From NCBI GenBank assembly GCA_964609215.1, contig CAZSQZ010000009.1, positions 16,394 to 80,393 of the forward strand: 64,000 nucleotides of DNA, written 5' to 3'. Positions within the stretch are counted from its first letter, which is position 1; the number at the start of each line of letters is the position of its first letter. The notes below the pieces were generated by a model, which was not told the origin of the DNA, did no database searches, and was given only the letters and a program-made list of their open reading frames with translations. Source of the stretch: an uncultured Flavobacteriales bacterium. Its GTDB lineage: Bacteria; Bacteroidota; Bacteroidia; Flavobacteriales_D; JABDKJ01. The translations under genes and the position numbers were made by a program. Below, piece after piece: positions 9,951 through 41,140 of this stretch.

Positions 9951-11323
9951 AAAGGATTTTAGTTCTTCTGTTTTGCTTTCATTTTATCCATTCATTTTCG
10001 CAGGATGATAATGATTCTTTGGTTGTAAGGTCAATTTTTGATGAGGCTTTGGTGAATGGAGAAGCCTATGATAATTTGAGATTCCTGTGTAAGAATATTG
10101 GAGCGCGTTTAAGCGGTTCAGACGCTTCTTACAAAGCCATTTATTGGGGTGAGAATTTGATGAAATCTTATGGTTTTGATAATGTGCAATTGCAGAAAGT
10201 AATGGTTCCTGTATGGAGAAGAGGATTACGCAATAGTCTTACTATTGAAGGTTTGGGAGAAGTTAATGTATTGGCACTTGGAGGATCTATTGGAACGAAT
10301 GGTCAATTGCAGGGAGAAATAGTTGAAGTAAAGAAGTTTGATCAGGCTAAAGAAATGGACCCATCTCTTTTCAAGGATAAAATTATTTTTTTTAATGAAG
10401 CCATGGATCCACGTTTCATAAGCACTTTTAGAGCGTATGGTTCTTGCTCTAGTCAGAGATATGCGGGAGCAAATGTTGCAGGAGAATTGGGAGCTAAAGC
10501 GGCTATTGTTCGTTCTTTAGGACTTTCTAAGGACAATTATCCTCATACAGGAAGTATGGGGTATATGGAAGGTGTAACCAAGGTTCCGGGTGCAGCAATC
10601 GGAACGGAAGATGCATTTAAACTGAGTCAGTTATTAAAAGACAAAAAGGTGGAAGTGAGTCTTGAATTGAGCTGTGTGCAGAAACCAGATACTTTATCTT
10701 ATAATGTAATGTGTGAGATTAAAGGGACTGAATACCCTGAGAAAATCATCCTCATCGGAGGTCATTTAGATAGTTGGGATGTCGGTGAAGGTGCTCATGA
10801 TGATGGGGCAGGAGTTGTGCAATCATTGGAAGTTTTAAGATTATTTAAGGCACTTGGAATAAAACCAAAACACACGATTAGATGTGTTTGGTTTATGAAT
10901 GAGGAGAATGGCAATAGAGGCGGAAAAGAATATGCCAAAATTGCTAAAGAAAATGGGCTTGAACATGTCGCGGCATTGGAAACGGATAGGGGCGGTTTTT
11001 CACCAAGGGGTTTCGACTATGATGGTGATGATGAGTTGCAATTTGAGAAATTTCAAAGTTGGAAAACCATACTTGAGCCTTATGGATTGCATCAATTTAG
11101 AAAAGGTTATTCCGGAGTAGATATTAGACCATTAAAGGATGGTAAAATTGCGCTATTTGGTTTGTCTCCTGATTCTCAAAGATATTTTAAATACCATCAT
11201 ACAGATGCAGATGTTTTTGAGGCGGTAGATGAAAGAGAATTACAGCTAGGAGCAGCTTCTATGGCTTCTTTAATTTATCTCATAGATAAATATGGTTTTC
11301 CTACTCCTCTGAAATTGGATTAG
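9947..11323 (+). CDS. M28 family zinc peptidase (aminopeptidase), secreted
   Basis: Signal peptide. Zinc-binding block HLDSWDVGEGAHDDGAG and a later NEENG motif typical of M28. Confidence 0.6.
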   Translation: MKRILVLLFCFHFIHSFSQDDNDSLVVRSIFDEALVNGEAYDNLRFLCKNIGARLSGSDASYKAIYWGENLMKSYGFDNVQLQKVMVPVWRRGLRNSLTIEGLGEVNVLALGGSIGTNGQLQGEIVEVKKFDQAKEMDPSLFKDKIIFFNEAMDPRFISTFRAYGSCSSQRYAGANVAGELGAKAAIVRSLGLSKDNYPHTGSMGYMEGVTKVPGAAIGTEDAFKLSQLLKDKKVEVSLELSCVQKPDTLSYNVMCEIKGTEYPEKIILIGGHLDSWDVGEGAHDDGAGVVQSLEVLRLFKALGIKPKHTIRCVWFMNEENGNRGGKEYAKIAKENGLEHVAALETDRGGFSPRGFDYDGDDELQFEKFQSWKTILEPYGLHQFRKGYSGVDIRPLKDGKIALFGLSPDSQRYFKYHHTDADVFEAVDERELQLGAASMASLIYLIDKYGFPTPLKLD

Positions 11324-13375: not shown

Positions 13376-16201
13376 TTATTTTTTTCGGAGCTCATAAGAA
13401 ATAGAAAAATAGGCCAATCTGCCTATTCTTGGACCCCCATAAGTCTGAAATTGTCTATTGTTTAAAATATTTGTAGCACCTAATTTAAATGTGCTTTTCA
13501 ATTTTTTTGCTTTATAATTGACTTGTGCGTCCACCAAATCATAGGTTGGAATGAATCCTGTGAATTGTGGAGAGCCTTCAAAAAGAAAGCCTTCTATCCA
13601 TTTATAGTTTACATTGAAGCCAAAACTTTTTATTTCTTTATTGCCTATTTTCAGAGGGATATCTCTTCCACTAACTCCAATATTGTACTTGTGCTCTGGA
13701 GTATTAAAAGCTGGAATAATGGGATCATCATCAAAGGATTTGTTTAGCTTGTTCCAGGAATAATTACCATTGATACTATAATACTTTCTGAAATAGTAAT
13801 TCCAACCTATGGAAAATCCTTGGGTCGTAACTTGGTTTTCAGAATTGGCAGAGTACCGGAATACTTGAAGCTCATCAATTAAGGAAGTAACAGGATCTAG
13901 TTCTAAATCTATACCAATGTTAAAGCCCAGAAAGTCATCGTAGATACTGTAATAATAACCTGCGTCTAGATAAAGATTGTTATTAATAGTTGTTCGATAA
14001 CCCAACTCAAAAGTCTTAACTCTTTCCGGTTGAATAGGATCGATGCTAAAATATTCGAGATCATCTGAAAGCTGACTTCCCCTGAAGGCCTGAAAGGAAT
14101 CAAGTGTTACCAAACTATCCACACCATTTAGATTTCCAGATAAAATAGCTGGCCCAACATTTAGAAATTGGAATTGATCCGTTAAAGTAGGGTTCCTAAG
14201 TGCAGATGAGAAAGAGAAACGTATAAAGTTATTCGCTCTCGGCTTCCAGACAAAGGAAACTGCGGGAGTGAAAATTGCGTTAAAGTTCTCATTCTTATCC
14301 ATCCGTATTGTGGCATTCATAGTAACTCTATCATCAGCCAGCTTTTTCTCAATTCCTGAGTAAATTCCAAATTCTGAATTAGTAATTCGAATTCCTGCAG
14401 TATCAGAAAAGATGGTCCCATCTGATAATGGTCGATATATTCTTCCATTTGCTCCAACTGTCAATTCTTCTGTCCATTCTGGATTGAAAGTGTATTCCCC
14501 TTGAATATGAAATAGTTTAGATTTATCATAAAACATGGTTCCTCCTTCACGCTCATTATTCCTTAAGGAACGAATTCGATTAAACTCGGCCTGAAACTCT
14601 GGTGAACTTGGATCGAGAAGCACACTGTTTCCTGATCCAAAACCTGAGTTTACAGTGTCTGCTGTGATTGCATGAAATTGACTAAGAATATCTTGATTGT
14701 CAATTAACCATTGATTTGCAGCTGCAATTGAGTCAGGGTCAAAGAAAGAGATAAAATCAGGTGGAGGACCAATAATGAAATCGTCACTAAGATCAACATA
14801 GCCAGCATCCAACATCTGTGCGAAGATGTTATTCTTCCAGAAATTTGTGTAAGCACCTATCCAAGAACTCAATTCACCAGTTTGTTCTTGAAGCCTGAGT
14901 GCAGTTGCAAAGGGGTCATAGGATGAACCGGCATCTTCAGCCGTTATATAAGCCCGAACAAAATACTTATCCGTTTTCCGCAATTCTATTTTGTTCTGAA
15001 AAAATAAAATATCCTCCAATCTAAATCTGTTATCACCTTGATAAATGGTTGTTCCAGTTCCCACATTTCCTCCAACAATTAATTCCGGAGATTGCAATTC
15101 CATATCTGGCTTTAGTCTAAAATGGAATGCCAAGTTGGCTTTTAGATTTTCGGTGTCATAGTCAACAAGATCTATTTCTCTATACCCTGTTCGGTAAAAT
15201 CGACCTAAGCCAGCTTCATTCAAAACTGGAGATTCAGCAAAATTCGCAAAGGTTTCATCTCCATATATATTAACCGCATCAAAACCACCCGGATTTGATG
15301 CAGTAACTGGAGAGCCATCAACAGGATCGAAGTTTTCCGCTTCCCAATCATCGGCTGTTAAGTAGGAAATATTAAACTTATATGCCATAAACGGAAGCTC
15401 TTCATTATTATTAAAAACATCCGCCCAACGAACAGAAACTTCCGTTAAAGCTCTTTCACCTACTTTCAAACTTGCAGATAATCCTTCATGAAGAAATGGA
15501 CTTTTATTATCGATATTAATAACTCCGTTAAACGCATTTGGACCATAAAACGCAGAGCTTGCTCCAGAAATAATTTCTACTTTTTGTACATCTAGCTCGG
15601 GTGAACCTAGAAAATTTCCTAAAGAAAAATTTAATCCCGGAGCTTGATTATCCACTCCGTCAATAAGCTGCAGAGATCGAACAGGACTAGTGCTATTGAA
15701 GCCTCTGGTATTAATTACTTTAAATCCTAGACTAGCGGCAGTTAAGTCCACTCCTTTTAAATTTCCAAGTCCATCATAAAAATTATCTGCTGGTGTTTCC
15801 TTTATCGCAATCAAATCCATTGCTTCAACGGTTAATGGTCTAGATTTTTGTTTTTCTGAAATTCTTTGACCTACTATTTCAACTGATCCAATATCAATGG
15901 CTTCTGAATCTAGAAATATTTCAATCTTTTGATTTTCGCTAGTTACTTCAACCTCTTTGGTTAAATAACCTATAAACTGAACAACCAGAGTTAAAGGTAA
16001 ATCACCTTTAGTTTTAAATTGAAATGCACCATCAATATCTGTTACAGCGCCATTGGTAGTTCCTTTTTCTACAACTGTTGCTCCAATTAGTGATTCATCT
16101 AATGATTTATCTTTTACAACACCTTTAACAGTAGTTTGACCCAAAAGATTGGTACTGAGAAAAATAATAAAAGAACAAATAACACACACTTTTCCGTTCA
16201 T
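13376..16201 (-). CDS. TonB-dependent outer-membrane receptor with N-terminal carboxypeptidase-regulatory-like domain
   Basis: Signal peptide, then a CarbopepD_reg-like segment (VKGVVKD...DGAFQF), a plug, and a long beta-barrel ending in an aromatic-rich terminus (YFSISYELRKK). Confidence 0.7.
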   Translation of the reverse strand: MNGKVCVICSFIIFLSTNLLGQTTVKGVVKDKSLDESLIGATVVEKGTTNGAVTDIDGAFQFKTKGDLPLTLVVQFIGYLTKEVEVTSENQKIEIFLDSEAIDIGSVEIVGQRISEKQKSRPLTVEAMDLIAIKETPADNFYDGLGNLKGVDLTAASLGFKVINTRGFNSTSPVRSLQLIDGVDNQAPGLNFSLGNFLGSPELDVQKVEIISGASSAFYGPNAFNGVINIDNKSPFLHEGLSASLKVGERALTEVSVRWADVFNNNEELPFMAYKFNISYLTADDWEAENFDPVDGSPVTASNPGGFDAVNIYGDETFANFAESPVLNEAGLGRFYRTGYREIDLVDYDTENLKANLAFHFRLKPDMELQSPELIVGGNVGTGTTIYQGDNRFRLEDILFFQNKIELRKTDKYFVRAYITAEDAGSSYDPFATALRLQEQTGELSSWIGAYTNFWKNNIFAQMLDAGYVDLSDDFIIGPPPDFISFFDPDSIAAANQWLIDNQDILSQFHAITADTVNSGFGSGNSVLLDPSSPEFQAEFNRIRSLRNNEREGGTMFYDKSKLFHIQGEYTFNPEWTEELTVGANGRIYRPLSDGTIFSDTAGIRITNSEFGIYSGIEKKLADDRVTMNATIRMDKNENFNAIFTPAVSFVWKPRANNFIRFSFSSALRNPTLTDQFQFLNVGPAILSGNLNGVDSLVTLDSFQAFRGSQLSDDLEYFSIDPIQPERVKTFELGYRTTINNNLYLDAGYYYSIYDDFLGFNIGIDLELDPVTSLIDELQVFRYSANSENQVTTQGFSIGWNYYFRKYYSINGNYSWNKLNKSFDDDPIIPAFNTPEHKYNIGVSGRDIPLKIGNKEIKSFGFNVNYKWIEGFLFEGSPQFTGFIPTYDLVDAQVNYKAKKLKSTFKLGATNILNNRQFQTYGGPRIGRLAYFSISYELRKK

Positions 16202-31450: not shown

Positions 31451-32551
31451 CTACGGAGGTGAACCAAGAATGTCTTTAAGTTGGCCAATCATACTGCCTT
31501 TGCCATCAACAGTAATTTCACCGATCTTGTCAGCCACTTTTTCCACGAACTCCATTTCCTTCAATTTATAGAGCATTTGGTTGTTCTCCATTAATTTTGC
31601 TGTGTTCAACATACTTCTAGTAGAAGCTGTTTCTTCTCTTCTCATGATCATGCTGGCAGCGGCTTTTTTCTCTGCTACTAAAACTTGATTCATGATTTCT
31701 TTAATGTCGCCCGGAAGAATGATATCTTTAATACCGCAAGAAATCAATTCTACTCCAAGTGCTTTGCATTCTTTATGACTTCCGCTTTTTACAAATGAGC
31801 CTGCTTGGGTTTTTAGCTCTAAGAGTTCATCAAAGCTCAAACCACCTACATAAGCTCTTAAAGACATTTGCAAAATGGTATAGAGCTGCTTTCTGAAGTC
31901 TATGTTTTTAAGCAAAGCAAGAACTGGGTCAACGACTTTAAACGCAAATTCGAAGTTGATTCTTAAGTTGGCTTTATCTTTAGTCAAGATTTCTTGGCCG
32001 CTTAACTCCATTGATTGTTGTCTCAAATCAATAATATCAACTTGAACATTAGACAATTGCTTGTAAAAGTGATAAACACCTGGAGTCAGGGCTTCAAATA
32101 ATTTACCATCCTCTTGAACTAAACCCATTTCGAAATTTCTGATTTCAATCTTTTTCAAAATGTTGTTGTTCACCAGAGCATCTAATACTTTTTTAGAAAG
32201 GTTATCCTGAACTCTTACCTCTTTCATATTTAGTGTCTGAAATGTATAAAGAGAGTTTTCTTTCCAGTAAGCATAGATACCTTCGGTAAGAATTGATTGA
32301 AGAATGTTATTTCTATAAACCAATATAACTTGTTCGTCTGTGATTTCAAGTACGTCTAGTTGCTTGTATAGTTCTTCATTTTTCAATAACAAAGCCAGAT
32401 CAATTGGTGCATCAAAGCGCATCAAGGTATTGTAAATCTTTATTGTCTTATTGCTAAAGTTCCAGTGCTTACCGCTACTTAATACTTTGATCAAATCTTG
32501 ACCTTCAAATACGAGGCCTTTTTCGTACGTTTTAATTTTTACTCTAAACAT
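31451..32551 (-). CDS. SPFH/band-7 (slipin-like) domain protein
   Basis: SPFH core (ILTKDKANLRINFEFAFKVVDP...), followed by a coiled-coil-like AEKKAAASMIMRREETAS region typical of HflK/C-stomatin relatives. Confidence 0.6.
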   Translation of the reverse strand: MFRVKIKTYEKGLVFEGQDLIKVLSSGKHWNFSNKTIKIYNTLMRFDAPIDLALLLKNEELYKQLDVLEITDEQVILVYRNNILQSILTEGIYAYWKENSLYTFQTLNMKEVRVQDNLSKKVLDALVNNNILKKIEIRNFEMGLVQEDGKLFEALTPGVYHFYKQLSNVQVDIIDLRQQSMELSGQEILTKDKANLRINFEFAFKVVDPVLALLKNIDFRKQLYTILQMSLRAYVGGLSFDELLELKTQAGSFVKSGSHKECKALGVELISCGIKDIILPGDIKEIMNQVLVAEKKAAASMIMRREETASTRSMLNTAKLMENNQMLYKLKEMEFVEKVADKIGEITVDGKGSMIGQLKDILGSPP

Positions 32552-32858: not shown

Positions 32859-32935
32859 TCAATAGGGGTGGAATCGAACCACCGACCTTCTCGTTTATGC
32901 GAGATGCTCTAACCACTTGTGTTACTATATAAAAG
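32859..32935 (-). pseudogene. tRNA-like element (5'-disrupted), with a 6-nt anticodon-like loop
   Basis: Minus-strand reading gives a canonical D-loop/3' D-stem (AGTGGTTAGAGCA), variable AGGTC and T-arm GGTGG-TTCGATT-CCACC. The 5' D-stem and acceptor partner are absent. The anticodon-position hairpin TCTCG/CATAAA/CGAGA has a 6-nt loop. Confidence 0.4.
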
Positions 32936-32959
32936 TATAGCGCGTTTTCCAATTACGCC

Positions 32960-33050
32960 ACTGTGCCACAAGCACAGACAGGACTCGAACCTGTATAACA
33001 TGGGATTTATTTTCAGCAAATCCAAGTACTGAATTCATCATCAATATAAT
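32960..33050 (-). pseudogene. tRNA-like fragment (T-arm plus extended hairpins)
   Basis: Minus-strand ACAGG-TTCGAGT-CCTGT T-arm followed by a CTGTGC/GCACAG hairpin. An upstream GGATTT...AAATCC stem has a 9-nt loop. No acceptor pairing. Confidence 0.3.
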
Positions 33051-33194
33051 TAGGAGATACTTCTCAGCATCCAATTACAACATAGTGCATTTCACACACC
33101 AAAAAGATGAACCAGTCTTTTTAATTTTTTAAAGAACGTTTCTAAAAAGTCTTAATATATCCCCGAGACAAAATTGTCTCGAGGAATTTCTTGT

Positions 33195-33270
33195 GTCTCT
33201 TGTCGGATTCGAACCGACACTCTCATAATTAAACGAGCAGATTGGCTCTAAATTCGCTTCCCTACTTTAT
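33195..33270 (-). pseudogene. tRNA-like fragment (T-arm GTCGG-TTCGAAT-CCGAC), followed by a hairpin
   Basis: Canonical T-arm on the minus strand, with no matching acceptor stem. Immediately downstream (minus sense) is a CGAGACA/TGTCTCG hairpin at 33160-33183. Confidence 0.3.
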
Positions 33271-33427
33271 TAAATATATTTCGGTGCTTCTGCAAACTCT
33301 ATCCTTCCGCAGGCGAACTACGACCGGCATCATCCAATCACTACATGGTCTGAATCAACTTTTACCATAGCACTTCCTTTTATGCTAAAGAGACAATATT
33401 TAAAGAACTTCTATTAGCTTTTGCTAA

Positions 33428-33577: not shown

Positions 33578-34270
33578 TTAACGGGCAAAATCCGTATACT
33601 TTATTTTGGTTATTACCCTTTCCCCTTTTCTATTGAATAATTCCGTTGTAGGCCTCATAATTAAGCCTTCAGCTATATAATCCGTATTCTCTGCAATGGT
33701 GGATTTGAAACCTTCTTTGACGAAAGCAATAGCTTCTTCAAGTTTCCAAATTCCCATGATGGGTACAATCCCAATATTTAATTTATTGGCGATGTCTTCA
33801 TTGGCTTCTCTATTCAACCAGAAATCTCCAATTTTTACATCGAACAAAATGAAGTCGGTCCGATCAGGAAGATAGTTTCCACCTCTTTGAATTTTTTTGC
33901 CATAACCTTCTCCATATAAGCAAACATTTGTTGCATCTGGAAAATGTTTTTGCATTTTTTCATTAGTGAATGTATCCTGAAGAACGGAAACTAAATGCGC
34001 AGGAATTTGTGCATTATCCGTTTTTCCTCCGAAACGAACTTTTATTCCATCCCACATGATTCTGATATTTGTTCCGTCAATTTTTTCGGTACAAATCCAG
34101 TTGATGTTCTTCAATAATTCGAATTCCGGTTTTGCCCAAGTTCCTTCTAGTAAGGTCTTGTGTTTATTTTTAGGATCTCTAAAAAACACCGTTTGAATTT
34201 TTTGGTATTGTTTCATTTCACTCATATTTAAATTATCCATTCGTAGGAATAGAAAGATTCGAACTCTCAT
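33578..34270 (-). CDS. minimal ATP-dependent RNA/DNA ligase-like nucleotidyltransferase (KxDG adenylyltransferase domain only)
   Basis: Motif I TEKIDGTN (KxDG), motif III-like FILFDV, motif IV AEGLIMRP (EGhhhK/R) and motif V ITKIKYTDF. The first ~15 codons of the listed ORF overlap the tRNA-Arg gene, so the true start is probably an internal Met (MSEMKQ/MKQYQ near 34216-34225). The mature protein is about 215 aa, with no OB domain. Confidence 0.55.
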   Translation of the reverse strand: MRVRIFLFLRMDNLNMSEMKQYQKIQTVFFRDPKNKHKTLLEGTWAKPEFELLKNINWICTEKIDGTNIRIMWDGIKVRFGGKTDNAQIPAHLVSVLQDTFTNEKMQKHFPDATNVCLYGEGYGKKIQRGGNYLPDRTDFILFDVKIGDFWLNREANEDIANKLNIGIVPIMGIWKLEEAIAFVKEGFKSTIAENTDYIAEGLIMRPTTELFNRKGERVITKIKYTDFAR

Positions 34271-34315
34271 CCTCTGGTTCGTAGCCAGATATTTTCTCCC
34301 TTAAACTATATTCCT
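34244..34315 (-). tRNA. tRNA-Arg (anticodon ACG)
   Basis: Folded by eye. Perfect 7-bp acceptor AGGAATA/TATTCCT. Anticodon stem TCTGG/CCAGA with loop CTACGAA. T-arm GAGAG-TTCGAAT-CTTTC with one G-U. D-loop contains GG. Discriminator A. No encoded CCA. Confidence 0.6.
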
Positions 34316-34320
34316 ATTTG

Positions 34321-34393
34321 TGGAACAGAAAGGACTCGAACCTTTATCTTCCCGTCTTCAGCGGGTCGCATTGACCATCTTTGCTACTATTCC
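34321..34393 (-). tRNA. tRNA-Phe (anticodon GAA)
   Basis: 7-bp acceptor GGAATAG/CTGTTCC with one G-U. 3-bp D stem with a GG loop. Anticodon loop CTGAAGA. Variable AGATA. T-arm AAAGG-TTCGAGT-CCTTT. Confidence 0.6.
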
Positions 34394-34395
34394 AT

Positions 34396-34468
34396 TGGGT
34401 GTCTTCGAGGCTCGAACTCTGTTCTCTTCAGTCACAATGAAGTGTTTTACCGCATAAACTAAAGACAC
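34396..34468 (-). tRNA. tRNA-His (anticodon GTG)
   Basis: Anticodon stem CTTCA/TGAAG with loop TTGTGAC. The acceptor can be drawn with G-1 and C73 followed by CCA. D stem GTTT/AAAC with a GG loop. The T-stem is weak (about 3 bp around TTCGAGC). It is separated from the Phe gene by 2 nt. Confidence 0.5.
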
Positions 34469-34474
34469 CATAAG

Positions 34475-34548
34475 TACCCCTCCTAGGATTCGAACCTAGA
34501 CTGTAAGGATTTTAAGTCCTATGCCTCTGCCAATTGGGCCAGAGGGGC
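34475..34548 (-). tRNA. atypical tRNA with Leu anticodon TAA (type-I architecture, short variable loop)
   Basis: Acceptor GCCCCTC/GAGGGGT (G1-U72). Perfect T-arm CTAGG-TTCGAAT-CCTAG. Anticodon loop CTTAAAA on a 4-bp stem. 5-nt variable loop ACAGT. 3-bp D stem with D-loop AATTGGCA. Discriminator A. Confidence 0.5.
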
Positions 34549-34686
34549 AATTAAACTTGTGCTCTGTAGGGGAGAACCCCTATTTTCTGATAGAACTTAG
34601 CGAAGCGATCTCAACGAATCCATTGGAGATCATTCCCCTTGAGTCAAAGTCAGATGTACCAGCGGTTCTACTAGCAGAGCATTAGT
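34549..34686 (-). ncRNA. unassigned structured element between tRNA genes
   Basis: The minus-strand transcript would have a 7-bp terminal helix (TGCTCTG ... CAGAGCA) and internal hairpins GATCTC[13 nt]GAGATC and TAGGGG-TTCT-CCCCTA. It does not fold as a canonical tRNA by eye. Confidence 0.25.
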
Positions 34687-34759
34687 GCGGAGAGAGAGAC
34701 TCGAACTCTCAAATACCTGATTCTAAGTCAGGCGCCTTTGCCAATTTGGCCATCTCCGC
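34686..34759 (-). tRNA. atypical tRNA with Leu anticodon TAG (type-I architecture), paralog of the TAA gene
   Basis: Perfect 7-bp acceptor GCGGAGA/TCTCCGC. Anticodon stem CCTGA/TCAGG with loop CTTAGAA. Variable TATTT. T-arm GAGAG-TTCGAGT-CTCTC. 3-bp D stem with D-loop AAATTGGCAAA. Discriminator A. Confidence 0.55.
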
Positions 34760-34765
34760 ATTTGT

Positions 34766-34834
34766 TGCTCTATCAGGGTTCGAACCTGAAATCCAAGAAT
34801 CAAAATCTTGTGTGTTGCCATTACACTATAGAGC
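34766..34834 (-). tRNA. tRNA-Gln (anticodon TTG)
   Basis: Perfect acceptor GCTCTAT/ATAGAGC. D stem GTGT/ACAC with loop AATGGCA. Anticodon stem CAAGA/TCTTG with loop TTTTGAT. T-arm CAGG-TTCGAAC-CCTG. Discriminator A. Confidence 0.6.
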
Positions 34835-34879
34835 TATTTTGTTTGGGAAGTAGGATTATCTCACGTTTGAATTAATCCT

Positions 34880-34960
34880 AAATGATGTTCGTGAATGCAA
34901 AGCATTTCGAACCTACGACCTCCCGCGTCCAAGGCAGGTAAACAACCACCGTTATCTTCC
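34880..34960 (-). pseudogene. tRNA-like remnant carrying a T-loop motif (GGTTCGAAA), unresolved fold
   Basis: TTCGAA T-loop-like motif without a complementary T-stem. A possible acceptor-like pairing exists, GGGAGGT with ACTTCCC about 100 nt apart. The region also contains the hairpin ATCTTCCAAGAT followed by TTTTTTT. Confidence 0.25.
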
Positions 34961-35028
34961 AAGATTTTTTTGCTTAACATTCTCATGACTTCAGGAGACA
35001 GCTGAATTCAGTTGAACATTAAGCAAAG

Positions 35029-35111
35029 TGAAAGCGGCAGGACTCGAACCTGCATGCTCAGAAGAGACCTGATTTACAGTCAGGCGAGCCAACCAATTGC
35101 TCAACACTTCC
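35029..35111 (-). tRNA. tRNA-Tyr (anticodon GTA), type II
   Basis: Acceptor GGAAGTG/CGCTTTC with two G-U pairs. Canonical D-arm GAGC-AATTGGTTG-GCTC. Anticodon stem CCTGA/TCAGG with loop CTGTAAA. 13-14 nt variable arm with internal stem. T-arm GCAGG-TTCGAGT-CCTGC. Discriminator A. Confidence 0.65.
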
Positions 35112-35120
35112 ATATTTTAG

Positions 35121-35192
35121 AGACAAGGATGAGAGTCGAACTCATAAAAACAGTTTTGCAGACTGCTGCCTTAGCCATTCGGCCACCTTGTC
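35121..35192 (-). tRNA. tRNA-Cys (anticodon GCA)
   Basis: Perfect acceptor GACAAGG/CCTTGTC. D-arm GCC-GAATGGCTAA-GGC. Anticodon stem GCAGT/ACTGT (one G-U) with loop CTGCAAA. 4-nt variable. T-arm ATGAG-TTCGACT-CTCAT. Discriminator U, which is the Cys identity base. Confidence 0.65.
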
Positions 35193-35199
35193 AATTCGC

Positions 35200-35300
35200 G
35201 GAGAACAAAGGAATTGCTGCGCAGATCGCTGCGCTCAGAGTTCGAACCTTCACCGCGGATATGCGGCCTCACTTAGCAGTGAGTCTAACGAACCAGTATT
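35200..35300 (-). pseudogene. degenerate type-II tRNA-like element with Ser-type anticodon GCT in a 6-nt loop
   Basis: Minus-strand hairpin CTCAC/TGCTAA/GTGAG, which has only a 6-nt loop. Variable-arm-like stem CCGC/GCGG. A TTCGAAC T-loop motif lacks a proper T-stem. No acceptor pairing was found. Confidence 0.25.
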
Positions 35301-35309
35301 TACCTATTC

Positions 35310-35360
35310 TCCATTTGCGGAAAGAGTGGGAGTCGAACCCACACGAGTCGTTATCTCCGA
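35310..35360 (-). pseudogene. tRNA-like fragment (T-arm GTGGG-TTCGACT-CCCAC)
   Basis: Canonical T-arm on the minus strand followed by TCTTTCC. Only a minihelix-scale pairing partner (GGAGATA) lies upstream. Confidence 0.25.
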
Positions 35361-35375
35361 ACGGTTTTAACTCCA

Positions 35376-35408
35376 TATAGCGAACTCAATTGGTGTCGTT
35401 GAGTTCGC
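35376..35408. other. perfect 11-bp inverted repeat (AGCGAACTCAA ... TTGAGTTCGCT)
   Basis: Seen directly: AGCGAACTCAATTGGTGTCGTTGAGTTCGCT. It lies between the tRNA-like remnants and the terminator hairpin at 35470. Confidence 0.5.
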
Positions 35409-35467
35409 TTTGCTCAGTTCAAGGTCGTGACCACCACCAATTGGCTTGTCTTTCCAAAATCTTTTTC

Positions 35468-35500
35468 AAAAAAAAAGCACCTCACGAGGAGGTGCTTTTT
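35468..35500. terminator. bidirectional rho-independent terminator hairpin
   Basis: AAAAAAAAGCACCTC-ACGAG-GAGGTGCTTTTT. Perfect 7-bp GC-rich stem flanked by an A-run and a T-run. Confidence 0.6.
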
Positions 35501-35924
35501 AAATGTCTTGATCTATTTATTTCAATCTATTTTAAATGCTTCTCCCTATAGAATTTTTTGAATTCCGGATAGAATAATCGCAGCGAACTACATCCTTGTT
35601 CTTGGACTAAGTGGGCTTGGATTATATGTTCTAATGCAATTTTCATTGTGCTTTGTTTTGTGCGCTGCAAATATTTAAACTCTTTTTCAATTATACAAGA
35701 AAAAATTAATTTAAGTTACTGATAATCAAATGTTTACGATAAATTTTTGGACATAGAAATCCCGACTCGTATTTCTCGAATTTTCTTTTTTTTCGCAATT
35801 GCCTGTCTCTCAATTGATTCATTTTTTCTATTCTATTTCAACCTTATTTTAATTTATTCATTAATTATTTTTTTCAGTGTTTTTCAATTTCATTTATTCA
35901 AGCTCTTGTTATAGAGTTTGGGAC

Positions 35925-35960
35925 ATAAAAAAAGCCCGAACATTTTTAGGTTTCGGGCTT
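35925..35960 (-). terminator. rho-independent terminator of the minus-strand nucleotidyltransferase/RtcB operon
   Basis: GCCCGAA...TTCGGGC hairpin. On the minus strand it is followed by TTTTTTTATGTCCC. Confidence 0.55.
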
Positions 35961-36136
35961 TAACAATTCAAAATATTTTATTTCTAATGCATAAAAAGCC
36001 AAAACCGATTAAGACTGAAACGCGGTTCAGATATAGATGATATTAATATATATTGTTGCTTATGCATTTGTATTCTTTCTTTGCGTCTCAAAAATATTCG
36101 TGTTTTTTTGAAACGTGCCCTATAGACGTTAGAAAT

Positions 36137-37207
36137 TTATTTTGGTTGTCTAACCCGAGCATAAAATTCAGTTCTTAAGTTTCTGAGAAGCAAGTCTATT
36201 TGGTTTTTATCAGGTGAATCTTTTAAATTGGAGAACTTAAATAATAAATCAAGTTCCTGCCTTAATTTTTCTGCTTCTTTTAGAAGATATTCATACTCGA
36301 ATTCCCCATTTTTAATTGAAAGTAAAAAATCTCGATCTTTTCTTTTTACATTAATTCTTCCTTCTAGTGCTATTTCTTTGGCCATCTTGAGAAGCCTGAA
36401 TGTATGCATAATGTTTTTCGAGTCATAGTTTTTTCCATGTTTCACAGTTGTATTGTATCTCTCTTCATTTCTATTTTCCACCCAAGCCCAATATTCTTTA
36501 TGTCTCTTACAATAGGTGGAATAGCCATCTAGATTGAAAAAGAGCATGGTAAGGGCCTTTTCTCCTTTGGGTATTGAACTTAATGCAATTTCATTGGCAT
36601 TAGAGCTATTTATAATTCCTTTGTGTTGAATTGATTTGCTGTGAAAAAGACTATAACAGTCTTTCATGTTGGCTAATTTAACAAGACCACAATCTTCTTG
36701 TCGAATATTATTGTCTTTTAAGTATCGGCTAAGAGGAACTGATTTATTATGATCTAAAACAAAGCAAAAATCAAGAACTCCTTTTTTGACTTTTGACATT
36801 GGATTAACAATTTTCTTCTCAAGTCCTCTAGCTTTTTTAATCTGAGTAAATACATAGTTAGAAAATGTTTCCTTGCAACGCTTGCTCAAGAATAGATCTG
36901 TTTTCACCTTACCAAAAATGGGGTCTTTGTGCAATATGCAACCCTCCGGAACAGACAGGAGCTCAATTATATTGGGGTTATTATTAAGGCATAATTTCAG
37001 GAACTTTCTGATTTCATAATAAACAATGTCATTGCTTGGATTATTAATTTGTTCTGTATAATCGAAAGAATACAATTGCTTTTCTGGAAGAATATATACC
37101 CCTCTAATATCCGTGTCCGAATTTGGAGTAGCTAAACCATAAGCTCTACTTCCACTGATGCACTCAAAAATGATGTGACCTGATTCTTTTAATTCCTCAA
37201 GAGTCAT
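36137..37207 (-). CDS. Pol-beta superfamily nucleotidyltransferase (predicted RNA/nucleotide-modifying NTase)
   Basis: N-terminal hG[GS]x9-13Dh[DE] motif ISGSRAYGLATPNSDTDIRGV. 356 aa. Stop overlaps the start of the upstream paralog, so the two are operonic. Confidence 0.55.
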   Translation of the reverse strand: MTLEELKESGHIIFECISGSRAYGLATPNSDTDIRGVYILPEKQLYSFDYTEQINNPSNDIVYYEIRKFLKLCLNNNPNIIELLSVPEGCILHKDPIFGKVKTDLFLSKRCKETFSNYVFTQIKKARGLEKKIVNPMSKVKKGVLDFCFVLDHNKSVPLSRYLKDNNIRQEDCGLVKLANMKDCYSLFHSKSIQHKGIINSSNANEIALSSIPKGEKALTMLFFNLDGYSTYCKRHKEYWAWVENRNEERYNTTVKHGKNYDSKNIMHTFRLLKMAKEIALEGRINVKRKDRDFLLSIKNGEFEYEYLLKEAEKLRQELDLLFKFSNLKDSPDKNQIDLLLRNLRTEFYARVRQPK

Positions 37208-37950
37208 GTCAGTTCATTTATAAAAAACTCATTGAATGCAGTTGGATTCAATCTTACTTTTTTCAATGAATCCTTTTTCGATTCGTTTTCAAGTACAATT
37301 GTTTTAGCCATATTTAGCAAGTCTGTATTTATAGCAACAATTCCAGCTTCAGCAGTCGAAGCCTTTAACTGAACTAAATCGAGTAAAAGTCTTGATTCAT
37401 GATCTGAAATCAATTCAAAAAGCTCGGTAAATGAAACTGGAGGGATGGTCTTATTTTTTAAAATCCAATTGGCACATAATGCAGTTCTTATGGCGTAGAA
37501 GAATTCTTTAATAGTAAATTTTCCTTCTTTCAATTTCTCATGAAATCCTTTGTTCATACTGTGAAAATGATAGAATCCAGAAACAGGATTGAAATTTTCT
37601 TTTGCAAGAGTTCGCATATTTTCGAGTGTTTCCCTGTGAGAAAAATAGACGATTGGAGAAAATAGCCAACCTAGAAACGAAGCATTGGACTTGGCCAAAA
37701 GTTTGGAGGCTTTTTGCAAATCCCATCCAACTCCATCCAAGTCTTCTTCCGTCATAAATTGAATTGTATCATCTTCTTCCCATAGACTTAAGTATTTACG
37801 AAAGTCCTTTTTGTAAACGAAACGAACGTCATAATCTGAATCGGGAGACTCAAAACCCCAGGCCCTACTTCCAGATTCAACAGCAAAAAGAATATCTACT
37901 TCCTTCGTTTTTTCTATTTCTTTGAGTTTATTTATTATTAAGTCTTTCAT
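37204..37950 (-). CDS. Pol-beta superfamily nucleotidyltransferase, paralog of the downstream gene
   Basis: ESGSRAWGFESPDSDYDVRFVY motif (GS...DxD). 248 aa. 4-nt overlap with the next gene. Confidence 0.55.
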   Translation of the reverse strand: MKDLIINKLKEIEKTKEVDILFAVESGSRAWGFESPDSDYDVRFVYKKDFRKYLSLWEEDDTIQFMTEEDLDGVGWDLQKASKLLAKSNASFLGWLFSPIVYFSHRETLENMRTLAKENFNPVSGFYHFHSMNKGFHEKLKEGKFTIKEFFYAIRTALCANWILKNKTIPPVSFTELFELISDHESRLLLDLVQLKASTAEAGIVAINTDLLNMAKTIVLENESKKDSLKKVRLNPTAFNEFFINELT

Positions 37951-37961
37951 TTTTTTTCAAT

Positions 37962-40047
<2,086 letters not shown>

Positions 40048-40090: not shown

Positions 40091-41140
40091 TTGAAAGCTT
40101 TAATTTTGTATATGGCTCAAAATAAAAACGCTCTGATAAGATATAAAACCATTGATAAATGTCTTCAAAATCAATATAGAAAATGGACTTTGGAGGATTT
40201 AATTGATGCTTGTTCAGATGCATTGAACGAATATGAAGGACGAGATATAAATGTAAGCAAACGAACTGTTCAGCTTGATATTCAGTTAATGAGGAGTGAT
40301 AAACTTGGATATAATGCACCCATTATTGCTTATGAACGCAAATATTATCGTTATGAAGATGAGAATTATTCAATCACGAATATTCCTCTTACAGAAAATG
40401 ATATGAGTGTATTGACAGAGACGGTTGAAATGTTGAAACAGTTCAAAGATTTTTCATTGTTTTCTGAGTTGGGTGGTATTATTCATCGTCTAGAGGACAA
40501 AATTCACACGGAGAAAACTCAAAACTCTTCAGTCATTCATTTAGAAAAGAATGAGAATCTAAAAGGCTTGGAGCATTTAGATTTGCTTTATCAAGCGATT
40601 CTAAAAAAGATTTGTTTGACATTGGATTATCAATCCTTCAAGGCTAAGTCATCGAGTAGAATCGTTTTTCATCCATTTATTTTGAAAGAGTTTAACAATC
40701 GCTGGTTCGTGGTTGGAAGAAAAGGGAAGAGTAGTCCCATCATTACTTTTGCCTTAGATAGAATAATAGCTATTGACTATAATTTAGACATTCCATATTT
40801 AAACGAAGACTTTGATAGAGATGAGTATTACAAAAACACAATTGGTGTAACCGTACTTAACGAAACGCAGCTGAGAGAAGTTGATTTGAAAATTGACAAA
40901 TACAATGCACCTTATGTTTTGACCAAGCCCTTTCACCAATCGCAAGAGGTAATAGAAACAGATAGATATGGAAACGTAACGGTCAGAATCAAAGTTCATT
41001 TGAATTTCGAATTGGAACGTCTCATACTAGGTTTTGGAGATTCAATTCAAGTTCTTAAACCTAGACAATTGAAGAATAGAATAAGAAGGAAATTAAAAAA
41101 TGCGATTGAGAATTATGAGAAGGCTAAGGAACCTCATTAA
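40091..41140 (+). CDS. HTH plus WYL-domain transcriptional regulator, divergent from rtcB
   Basis: N-terminal winged-HTH-like segment (NALIRYKTIDKCL) and central WYL-like segment (NRWFVVGRKGKSSPIITFALDRI). 349 aa. The likely start is MAQNKN near 40112. Confidence 0.55.
   Translation: MKALILYMAQNKNALIRYKTIDKCLQNQYRKWTLEDLIDACSDALNEYEGRDINVSKRTVQLDIQLMRSDKLGYNAPIIAYERKYYRYEDENYSITNIPLTENDMSVLTETVEMLKQFKDFSLFSELGGIIHRLEDKIHTEKTQNSSVIHLEKNENLKGLEHLDLLYQAILKKICLTLDYQSFKAKSSSRIVFHPFILKEFNNRWFVVGRKGKSSPIITFALDRIIAIDYNLDIPYLNEDFDRDEYYKNTIGVTVLNETQLREVDLKIDKYNAPYVLTKPFHQSQEVIETDRYGNVTVRIKVHLNFELERLILGFGDSIQVLKPRQLKNRIRRKLKNAIENYEKAKEPH

Follow-up and report, generated by a model that had tools for sequence, protein, structure and literature searches.

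A 64-kb stretch of DNA from an uncultured Flavobacteriales bacterium (contig CAZSQZ010000009.1; hereafter the window) carries on its minus strand a compact array of eight tRNA genes, embedded in an island of genes for RNA repair. Comparison with related loci indicates that the eight genes are real and under selection for structure, and that the array is an integral part of a chromosomal RNA-repair island in Bacteroidota of the Flavobacteriales type. We propose that the array is a set of spare tRNAs, inducible by damage or stress, which is integrated with the enzymes of tRNA repair and probably gated by an attenuator that senses translation; our confidence in this reading is somewhat better than even, roughly 0.55. 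One conserved cassette would then hold repair enzymes for broken tRNAs, spare tRNAs of a non-housekeeping type and a candidate translation-sensing switch, and to our knowledge none of these three has been studied in Bacteroidota. Both bacterial competition and anti-phage defence rely on tRNA cleavage as a major weapon, and recovery from it is poorly understood.

The window was scanned with ARAGORN (including its mitochondrial and intron modes) and with the Rfam covariance model for tRNA, the gathering score of which is 29. In default mode ARAGORN called eight tRNA genes between positions 34243 and 35192, all on the minus strand, and no further tRNA in the 64 kb. In the direction of transcription these are tRNA-Cys(GCA) (35120-35192), the class II tRNA-Tyr(GTA) (35028-35111), tRNA-Gln(TTG) (34764-34835), tRNA-Leu(TAG) (34685-34759), tRNA-Leu(TAA) (34474-34548), tRNA-His(GTG) (34397-34469), tRNA-Phe(GAA) (34320-34393) and tRNA-Arg(ACG) (34243-34315). 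All are intact and score 46.7-69.6 bits with the Rfam model, above its cut-off. They are exactly the isoacceptors that an earlier reading of this DNA, made by a model from the letters alone (the sequence-only reading), had placed within about 950 nt; the strand of the array was absent from that reading. Adjoining tRNA genes are separated by 3-8 nt (ARAGORN boundaries), in agreement with the tight packing described there, yet the larger gaps proved to be filled by disrupted tRNA units, which had been overlooked.

The odd, AT-rich structure noticed earlier is borne out as well. Both Leu genes are class-I-like, only 75 nt long with a 5-nt variable loop, yet they have a D-arm of the Leu type (AAUUGGCA.A) and A73. 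D-stems of 3 bp occur in the Leu, Phe and Arg genes, the T-stem of His has three Watson-Crick pairs only, G-U pairs are found in the acceptor stems of Tyr, Leu-TAA and Phe, Phe has G37, and the GC content of the genes is 38-52%. Alignments confirmed that identity elements are kept: Cys has U73, C73 of His faces an encoded G-1, the two Leu genes and Tyr have A73, and Gln has an unpaired 1-72. CCA is encoded in none of the eight genes, each 3' end consisting of N73-C followed by an A-rich spacer of 3-4 nt.

For comparison we used 161 loci, 80 genomic and 80 metagenomic ones fetched by RlaP alignment, plus L081, a metagenomic contig that is the closest relative of the window locus (RlaP 89% identical, gene order identical). 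T-arm motifs are found in the gaps of 136 and 192 nt in the array and in the 260 nt upstream of Cys, and by alignment with L081 we recognised disrupted units there. The whole cassette (35455-34243, minus strand) comprises 13 co-oriented tRNA-derived units in 1.2 kb, eight intact and five disrupted. Its first unit, tRNA-Ser(TGA) (35318-35455), carries a 51-nt insert in the anticodon loop at 37/38 (about 35419-35369), as identified by alignment with intact genes; the insert is common to the window, L081, L091 and L004, and an intact Ser-TGA of 88 nt is present in L087 and L005. The body of this gene is conserved with compensatory changes, and the window copy has two anticodon-stem pairs broken. 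Next to it, tRNA-Ser(GCT) (35199-35312) has a 28-nt insert in the T-loop (35242-35215), falling after TTCG and with a motif that occurs once in the window, and an anticodon loop of 6 nt. A truncated tRNA-Asp(GTC), located between Tyr and Pro (34969-35027), consists of a 9-bp closing stem and the anticodon arm TTCAG-CTGTCTC-CTGAA; a full tRNA-Asp(GTC) with the same loop CTGTCTC occupies this slot in L091, L085 and L087. The last two disrupted units are tRNA-Pro(TGG) (34841-34962), with a 50-nt T-loop insert (about 34908-34859), and tRNA-Glu(TTC) (34559-34680), with an insert of 52 nt in the anticodon loop (about 34647-34596) and a deletion of 3 nt in the T-loop. In L081 the orthologues of Ser-GCT, Pro and Glu are intact. 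The reverse case also exists, the Cys and Phe genes of L081 holding homologous 28-nt inserts where the window genes are intact.

Standard gene finding does not recover these units. The mitochondrial mode of ARAGORN gave two low-confidence extra calls, which correspond to the Pro and Asp remnants (the latter called Asp-gtc), and its intron options left the interrupted genes uncalled. An exhaustive in-silico deletion scan with ARAGORN rescued Pro-TGG by removing exactly 50 nt, and also seven interrupted genes elsewhere; Ser-GCT and Glu of the window were not rescued because of their second lesions.

To follow the evolution of the intact genes, we took orthologues for each tRNA family from eleven related arrays (4-10 distinct sequences per family, mean identity 69-91%) and counted pair types on the consensus cloverleaf. 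Across the eight families 95-100% of stem cells are still paired. Compensatory double changes range from 3 pairs in Cys to 15 in Phe, with 11 of 21 pairs in Arg-ACG. The weak T-stem of His, G37 of Phe and the short variable loop of Leu are kept throughout each family among the related arrays, and for this reason appear to be traits of the lineage, not signs of decay. Covariance scores point the same way: tRNAs of related arrays reach 37.5-69.6 bits and two isolated tRNAs at the same loci 61.9-70.3, the window genes scoring like the former and slightly under the latter. Between the window and L081, finally, tRNA bodies are much more conserved than neighbouring non-coding DNA. The earlier argument for functional genes rather than random decay thus receives good support from the pattern of sequence evolution.

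The genes around the array are equally telling. On the plus strand, divergent from the island operon, lies the gene of a WYL-WCX transcription regulator (40091-41140; Pfam WYL and WCX, PADLOC WYL models). The operon itself, on the minus strand, starts with an RtcB-family 3'-phosphate RNA ligase (38641-40026; PF01139, 1.6e-35), orthologues of which are 68-80% identical in related islands, and continues with a lineage-specific all-alpha protein of 244 aa (37962-38696), an RlaP nucleotidyltransferase (RlaP1, 37204-37950; PF10127, 6e-61, more than 7000 homologues) and its conserved partner, a second, longer RlaP-like nucleotidyltransferase (RlaP2, 36137-37207; N-terminal PF10127, 2e-25). Then follow a promoter, a short open reading frame (ORF) and a terminator, the tRNA array, an ATP-dependent RNA ligase with an Rnl2-like nucleotidyltransferase domain (33578-34240; PF09414, 1.3e-17, weak NCBIfam Rnl2 match), an RNA of about 205 nt and an SPFH/Band-7 protein (31451-32551; PF01145, 3e-21), Band-7 genes being recurrent in related islands. 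The true start of the PF09414 ligase is probably at 34225 or 34240, just past tRNA-Arg; the orthologue in L081 has 218 aa.

The 244-aa protein has 39 homologues, the named ones all from Flavobacteriales, and its gene always lies between those of RtcB and RlaP. The motif K-H-F-x-P-R..E is invariant in the family and C-x-CC nearly so, and AlphaFold predicts 12 helices (pLDDT 90). No Pfam, NCBIfam or PADLOC match and no significant fold match in PDB (best E 0.3) was found. A role as splicing or anticodon nuclease was considered and dropped, given the missing family match, the confident all-alpha model and no PDB fold with E<0.3.

The closest RlaP relatives are from Flavobacteriales. The core WYL-RtcB-RlaP1-RlaP2 is kept in most of the 161 loci, in Flavobacteriales, Chryseobacterium, Chitinophagales and beyond, and the regulator gene adjoins the RtcB/RlaP genes in most related loci. 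Clusters of at least three tRNA genes are present in about 15 of the 161, mostly in the clade nearest to the window; among the 16 loci with RlaP identity of at least 55% and enough sequence, we counted ten. These arrays comprise 2-24 genes in a recognisable but variable or shuffled order, and their distribution is patchy; both traits would fit horizontal transfer. The main array of L087 has about 21 genes and is uninterrupted. L081 matches the window in gene order all the way from WYL regulator to Band-7 and has the same chromosomal flanks.

Conserved non-coding DNA of 680 nt separates RlaP2 from the array and harbours what we call the leader module (minus strand). It contains the palindrome CAATTG-N9-CAATTG (CAATTGAGAGACAGGCAATTG; 35796-35816), about 120 nt upstream of the leader promoter. 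Since this palindrome is kept in all leader modules and recurs ahead of other island units, it is a candidate for the operator of the WYL regulator. A -7 box of the Bacteroidota type (AAATATTTG; about 35676-35668, by our own reading) is followed by the short ORF (35527-35646), which encodes a candidate leader peptide of 39 aa and has homologues at nine other loci, and by an intrinsic terminator, GCACCTC-CTCGT-GAGGTGC and then T9 (35468-35495; free energy -10.8 kcal/mol by explicit folding). The first tRNA unit starts 12 nt after the T-run (14 nt if the start of the tRNA is set two bases further downstream).

A profile of the leader module found it directly upstream of the array in 11 out of 11 array loci, and the terminator is present, with covarying arms, in all related modules. 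The module also occurs at loci devoid of an array: in L006 and L093 it stands before a lone degenerate tRNA-like gene and an RNA-ligase-like ORF, in L116 and L122 before other sequence. Its 5' half, with operator and promoter, recurs before further units of short ORF and terminator in the islands. A second such pair lies between RlaP2 and the array leader in the window (about 35924-36070, minus strand), with an ORF of about 27 aa (MHKQQYILISSISEPRFSLNRFWLFMH) and a terminator AAAGCCCGAA..TTCGGGCTTT followed by T7 (hairpin about 35961-35924); analogues exist in L001, L004, L085 and L091.

The geometry of the module is well preserved. The ORF has 37-46 aa in ten loci, save that of L005, which was called with 69 aa, and the distance from stop codon to T-run is 47-51 nt in nine of the ten. 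The first tRNA starts 1-26 nt past the T-run, leaving no room for a separate promoter. In all ten loci the best pairing partner of the terminator 5' arm is a GGGAG-type segment within the ORF, 4-23 nt before the end of its stop codon; the duplex energies lie between -9 and -12 kcal/mol, and comparison with shuffled sequences gives z-scores between -1.5 and -3.9 (mean -2.7). A ribosome at the stop codon would cover GGGAG and so allow the terminator to form, whereas a stalled or absent ribosome would leave the segment free to compete. Codons readable by the own tRNAs of each array are moreover enriched 1.3-2.2 fold in the leader ORFs relative to neighbouring genes at six loci (p 0.0002-0.1).

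This arrangement recalls the amino-acid attenuators trpL, pheL, hisL and leuL in its short ORF, in the fixed distance to a terminator, in the segment near the ORF end that could pair with the 5' arm, and in downstream genes related in function to what translation of the ORF would, as we propose, sense. It differs from them in having tRNA genes downstream instead of biosynthetic enzymes, in lacking tandem codon runs and in offering a scheme of two states only. Such attenuators have been little studied in Bacteroidota.

From these features we infer that the array tRNAs are expressed and charged, and we propose the following inducing signal, mechanism of attenuation and role in replacement. Cellular tRNAs would be cleaved or depleted by anticodon nucleases of competitors, phage-triggered toxins or translation inhibitors, or translation would be stalled in some other way, and ribosomes would fail to finish the short upstream ORF. 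The GGGAG segment, left free, would pair with the 5' arm of the terminator, and transcription would read through into the array. RNase P, 3' trimming and CCA addition would release replacement tRNAs, provided with identity elements for charging but with bodies and anticodon loops unlike those of housekeeping tRNAs. Meanwhile the broken tRNAs would be healed and resealed by RtcB, the ATP-dependent ligase and the RlaP nucleotidyltransferases. The scheme presumes that the array tRNAs are supernumerary, which is probable for this genome, seen here through a 64-kb window, on the strength of related loci.

Several observations weigh against this proposal. The antiterminator pairing is short (5-10 bp), and beyond GGGAG:CUCCY no clear case of covariation was seen in its helix. 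Nor is the pairing strong evidence taken alone, because the leader is A/T-rich with a single G-rich block, and the encounter of this block with a C-rich stem accounts for part of it. Since the ORFs are homologous and have the motif C-L-R-S-P..E..F in common, the loci do not give independent evidence of codon enrichment, and the leaders contain no tandem runs of one regulatory codon such as classical attenuators have. The short ORF could instead encode a functional micro-protein. Our pattern scanner for terminators listed neither of the two minus-strand terminators, probably because their stems run into flanking runs of A and T. Finally, disruption of five of the 13 units, three of them with second lesions, means that part of the cassette is decaying. 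A ribosome-dependent attenuator is the reading that suits the anatomy of the leader best, and we consider it roughly an even bet. In the literature collection that we could search, we found neither an attenuator described ahead of tRNA genes nor a bacterial array reported to hold loop-interrupted tRNA genes.

The closest functional precedent comes from the long, horizontally transferred tRNA arrays (L-arrays) of cyanobacteria. The L-array (trn operon) of Anabaena sp. PCC 7120 is silent, is induced by translation inhibitors and improves survival; its tRNAs are aminoacylated, and part of them undergo cleavage under stress (Santamaria-Gomez et al. 2021, PMC8421152). Cyanobacterial L-arrays are genomic neighbours of rtcB or co-regulated with it (PMC8421152). 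Like them, the array described here is made of tight, co-oriented tRNA genes without encoded CCA, including some pseudogenes, is patchily distributed and is linked to RNA-processing genes including rtcB; the genes are supernumerary in L-arrays and probably so here. The proposed role, survival of translational stress and tRNA cleavage, is also common to both, and the terminator upstream of our array would be compatible with silence in normal growth and induction under translational stress. The differences concern context and content. In our case the array is embedded in an operon with RtcB, RlaP, Rnl and Band-7 genes and a WYL regulator, whereas rtcB of Anabaena lies elsewhere and its L-array is controlled by way of direct repeats (the repressor was named TrcR in a later paper). 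Our array is also smaller (eight intact genes), has insert-interrupted genes and follows a short ORF and a terminator, two features of which PMC8421152 makes no mention.

An alternative that we hold to be unlikely, though worth serious attention, is that the array RNAs are mainly non-translating mimics of tRNA, serving as nuclease decoys or sponges or as cofactors or scaffolds of the repair enzymes, much as Y RNA does for Ro60. One argument for it is a second type of RNA in the island. Between the ligase and Band-7 lies a kilobase free of ORFs, and it contains an RNA of about 205 nt (33187-33398, minus strand), which nhmmer found in eight sequences: the window, L081 (14645-14856, within a full-length match) and, at 70-82% identity, L004 (13911-14125), L035 (9771-9984), L041 (9768-9983), L091 (7098-7310), L053 (19315-19522) and L018 (4469-4670). 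Its consensus fold has ten helices, and covariation is very strong, 22 of the 52 pairs being changed on both sides. Pairing is seen in 97.7% of the cells, compared with 34-44% when partners are slid by 1-3 columns, and none of 500 shuffles reached the observed value. The RNA resembles a tRNA in its architecture: a 6-bp closing stem of the acceptor type is followed by A-CAA, a D-arm-like hairpin has a GG loop, a canonical T-arm (GGTTCGAATCC) adjoins the 3' strand of the closing stem, and a domain of several helices and about 130 nt takes the place of the anticodon arm. No matching family exists in Rfam.

Closer to Band-7, at 32866-33013 (minus strand), there are fragments resembling tRNA and Y RNA, with sub-threshold Rfam matches to YrlA (28.6 bits, E 9e-4) and tRNA (24.5 bits). 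They include a tRNA-like unit with a 6-nt CAUAAA loop and are conserved with L081 only. In L004, Rfam finds directly upstream of the ~205-nt RNA a tRNA of 155 nt with a large internal insertion (13753-13907, 43.3 bits).

The idea of tRNA mimics is also represented in the literature. Burroughs and Aravind (2016), as cited in bioRxiv 10.1101/312249, predicted an RtcB/Band-7 system with a tRNA associated with Band-7, the b7a-tRNA, analogous to Y RNA-Ro60, which according to that preprint has never been validated. As far as it is described there, this system, the closest structural precedent, has the same proteins as our island (RtcB, RlaP, here with two paralogues, and SPFH/Band-7) with genes of tRNA-like RNA alongside, but one tRNA-like RNA stands in place of the bona fide tRNA array, the separate ~205-nt RNA and the second, ATP-dependent ligase found here. 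The ~205-nt RNA could be the predicted b7a-tRNA or a different RNA. The idea of a sponge was raised in the L-array study itself (PMC8421152). In our material, such a role would also fit the truncated Asp unit, which has the anticodon arm alone left, and the repeated 3' fragments of tRNA in related arrays. Aminoacylation identity elements and full cloverleaves kept by compensatory change, on the other hand, answer the needs of translation and go beyond those of a decoy, and 23 array tRNAs are aminoacylated in vivo in Anabaena (PMC8421152). We therefore prefer spare tRNAs used in translation.

The cassette might alternatively be a functionless, decaying relic of a once larger array acquired horizontally. 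The five disrupted units, set beside the uninterrupted version with about 21 genes in L087, speak for it, and so do the second lesions of the interrupted copies, namely the 6-nt anticodon loop, the 3-nt T-loop deletion and the broken stem pairs. Such a relic would hardly keep eight intact genes with 3-15 compensatory pairs per family and 95-100% pairing at 69-91% identity, nor tRNA bodies that are far more conserved between the window and L081 than the non-coding flanks, and we consider it very improbable that the array as a whole has lost its function.

Inserts comparable to those of the window are found in tRNA genes of related arrays and fall into at least four families. The 28-nt family (AACTYYGAG..CGATC..), at T-loop 57/58, comprises Ser-GCT of the window and Cys and Phe of L081; outside these two it was found neither among the collected loci nor in 2.9 million viral contigs. 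A 25-nt family (AGCCTGTGCTGAACTYGATTCAGTA) replaces G53 in Ser-GCT and Asn-GTT of Kordia and in Pro-TGG of L089. The family of about 50 nt (AATRC-hairpin-ATTCAYGAAC..) resides in the T-loops of the window Pro and of Kordia Leu-TAA and, by our reading of the sequence, also appears in reverse orientation in the anticodon loop of Kordia Arg-TCT. The fourth family, of 50-54 nt (AAATGAG..GAATTCAACG....GAGTT), occupies position 37/38; four genomes have it in Ser-TGA, and it is also found in the Phe-GAA gene of L004. Exact removal of 28 or 50 nt gives back T-loops of 7 nt.

The 25-nt insert was also detected in two unrelated viral contigs, as an exact copy in L165 (5449-5473, minus strand) and with 24 of 25 nt in L172 (about 10574-10597, minus strand). 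In both, the 25-mer lies inside the loop of a local hairpin and no tRNA is involved; it may be a tiny element that targets hairpin loops. Other matches to relaxed insert patterns in viral contigs were mostly ordinary coding-like sequence and are attributed to chance, only these two being meaningful.

Insertion at the DNA level is the origin that we favour for the inserts, because the 25-mer occurs outside tRNAs, because interrupted genes have further lesions and because neither a bulge-helix-bulge (BHB) motif nor a conserved fold nor an EndA-like protein was found. The competing view is that the interrupted genes are intron-containing tRNAs, the inserts being removed from RNA and the neighbouring RtcB or Rnl ligase joining the exons; this would amount to a protein-dependent pathway of tRNA splicing in bacteria. 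Its appeal is considerable. The insert in Ser-TGA, common to four genomes, is located at 37/38, the canonical intron site of archaea and eukaryotes, and the same family recurs at this site in Phe-GAA of L004; T-loops after exact removal of 28 or 50 nt are perfect; and RtcB, the splicing ligase of archaea and metazoa, is encoded next door. Even so, no canonical BHB was seen at the junctions by manual inspection, and scans of the island proteins with Pfam, PADLOC and NCBIfam gave no match to tRNA-intron endonuclease (EndA). The 244-aa island protein is predicted to be all-alpha, with no fold match and no nuclease-like fold. RNAalifold detected no conserved pairing in the Ser-TGA insert, further lesions pile up in interrupted copies, and the 25-nt family replaces G53 and also sits in hairpin loops of two viral contigs without tRNA. 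In our judgement splicing is just as improbable as the relic.

Two structural candidates in the inserts were set aside. One was a BHB motif, a relaxed form with a 4-bp TTCG/CGAA helix and bulges of 6-8 nt, seen in two L081 copies only; it was rejected because its central helix is not conserved in the window copy and the bulges are too long. The other was a hammerhead-like core, rejected by eye as the CUGA..GA core is missing.

Fujishima et al. in 2010 and Randau and Soll in 2008 are said to have described tRNA genes of archaea (Thermoproteales) in which multiple small introns, able to transpose, undergo splicing by EndA and RtcB. The likeness to our inserts extends to short length (25-54 nt here), positions at 37/38 and in the T-loop, related inserts across different tRNAs, presence or absence differing between close relatives, and RtcB nearby. 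In contrast to those introns, neither a BHB motif nor an EndA homologue was found for the inserts, interrupted copies look damaged and one family also exists outside tRNAs. A more far-reaching version of our proposal, in which the leader ORF senses tRNA loss and controls a 'tRNA emergency kit' beside heal-and-seal enzymes, and in which the loop inserts of 25-54 nt are new miniature mobile elements or, less likely, introns joined by RtcB, is put forward tentatively, since we think the odds are against it in this full form.

The sequence-only reading had taken the array for one typical of phages or mobile elements, which would make it cargo of a phage, prophage or other mobile element, tuning codon usage for that element. 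Tight packing, atypical bodies and patchy occurrence among related genomes suit this idea, and single genes are indeed phage-like: Tyr is 90% identical to the tRNA-Tyr of a Rhodococcus phage (an actinophage), and Leu-TAA 83% identical to a 77-nt tRNA-Leu annotated in Bacillus phage P59. No match at the level of the array was obtained by blastn in 50,697 phage records, which gave only single-tRNA matches of 67-90% identity, or in 72,556 plasmid records, where two unrelated single-tRNA matches appeared. The neighbours annotated by Pfam are cellular or concerned with RNA repair, with no phage or conjugation match among them; the window is part of a Bacteroidota chromosome, with genes for a TonB-dependent receptor with CarboxypepD_reg, Por_Secre_tail proteins of the type IX secretion system (T9SS), UvrA and an ECF sigma factor (Pfam). 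Because of these cellular neighbours, the flanks shared with L081 and the lack of an array match in phages and plasmids, we regard the locus as a cellular RNA-repair island. The array is, furthermore, always linked to RtcB/RlaP genes, and mobile cargo seems to us a very improbable explanation.

What stood of the phage intuition concerns the tRNAs themselves, which are phage-like and apart from the housekeeping lineage, and the patchy distribution of the array family; what failed is the location. An isolated Phe gene at a related array locus has the canonical D-arm TAGCTCAGTTGGTAGAGCA and A37, whereas all array Phe genes have an odd D-arm and G37 (anticodon loop YTGAAGN, at 34320-34393 in the window and in related arrays). 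An isolated Leu-CAA in a related locus is of class II and 83 nt long, compared with 74-75 nt for array Leu genes. The Asp and Glu genes in arrays of relatives have a pyrimidine at position 37; the anticodon loops in L005, L007, L085, L087, L089 and L091 are CTGTCTC for Asp (T37, C38) and CTTTCTA or CTTTCGA for Glu (T37 or G37). Throughout the family the anticodon loops thus depart from what is normal in bacteria. Anticodon-loop positions such as 37 matter for modification and for recognition by nucleases, and work by van den Berg et al. from 2023 reportedly shows that phage tRNAs evade anticodon nucleases through changes in the loop. Since array tRNAs resemble those of phage clusters and differ from isolated ones, they appear to belong to a 'mobile pool' and not to the host lineage. 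With phage tRNA clusters, such as those of T5-like phages and mycobacteriophages, the array shares compactness, deviant bodies and anticodon loops, and single genes of 78-90% identity; it differs in being cell-encoded and linked to repair, so that it would protect the cell's own translation and not that of a virus.

Least probable of all is an ordinary housekeeping tRNA operon, which would account for the chromosomal position, co-orientation and tight spacing seen in many bacterial tRNA operons, but not for related genomes with no array or with very different content (2-24 genes), for the canonical isolated Phe and Leu genes that coexist with arrays at related loci, or for class-I-like Leu, Phe G37 and disrupted members, all unexpected among essential genes.

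The locus, as its gene content indicates, physically joins tRNAs of the L-array type with RtcB/RlaP/Band-7 repair and has a WYL regulator, a second ligase, a leader-terminator and a large RNA resembling tRNA as further components, thereby linking two separate lines of research, on L-arrays and on RtcB/RlaP/Band-7 repair systems. On the enzymatic side, RlaP adds nucleotides in vitro to the 3' ends of cleaved tRNAs before ligation (PMC12776372). The ideas presented here are testable because there are cultivable carriers, Kordia algicida OT-1 (L007) among them, and a protein of Fluviicola taffensis is found among the RlaP homologues. The class-I-shaped tRNA-Leu, G37 of Phe and the pyrimidine 37 of Asp and Glu in relatives offer natural variants for asking how escape from nucleases relates to charging.

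Some further features of related loci deserve mention. Tandem repeats occur in several arrays (L091 5724-6050; L087 14611-14793 and 15188-15307; L001 12720-13055; L007 19596-19691). Each repeat combines an element of about 70 nt, a hairpin plus a T-arm with enlarged loop, with the final 17 nt of the tRNA that precedes it (A58 to N73-C). Three copies follow Pro in L091 and two follow Cys in L087, and the element is conserved across genera; the repeats could be scars resembling att sites, or they could mimic the 3' half of a tRNA. A distant clade of RlaP loci (44-45% identity; the metagenomic L133, L135, L136, L139 and L147) shows a lone tRNA-Trp(CCA) about 0.4-0.6 kb after RlaP, which could represent an arrangement with a single b7a-tRNA-like RNA. 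Anticodons reading stop codons are present in two related arrays (L081 13464-13537; L087 12900-12975). The body of the TTA (ochre) tRNA is orthologous to Val-TAC of L005, and the TCA tRNA was called SeC by ARAGORN; both may be suppressors or degenerate genes.

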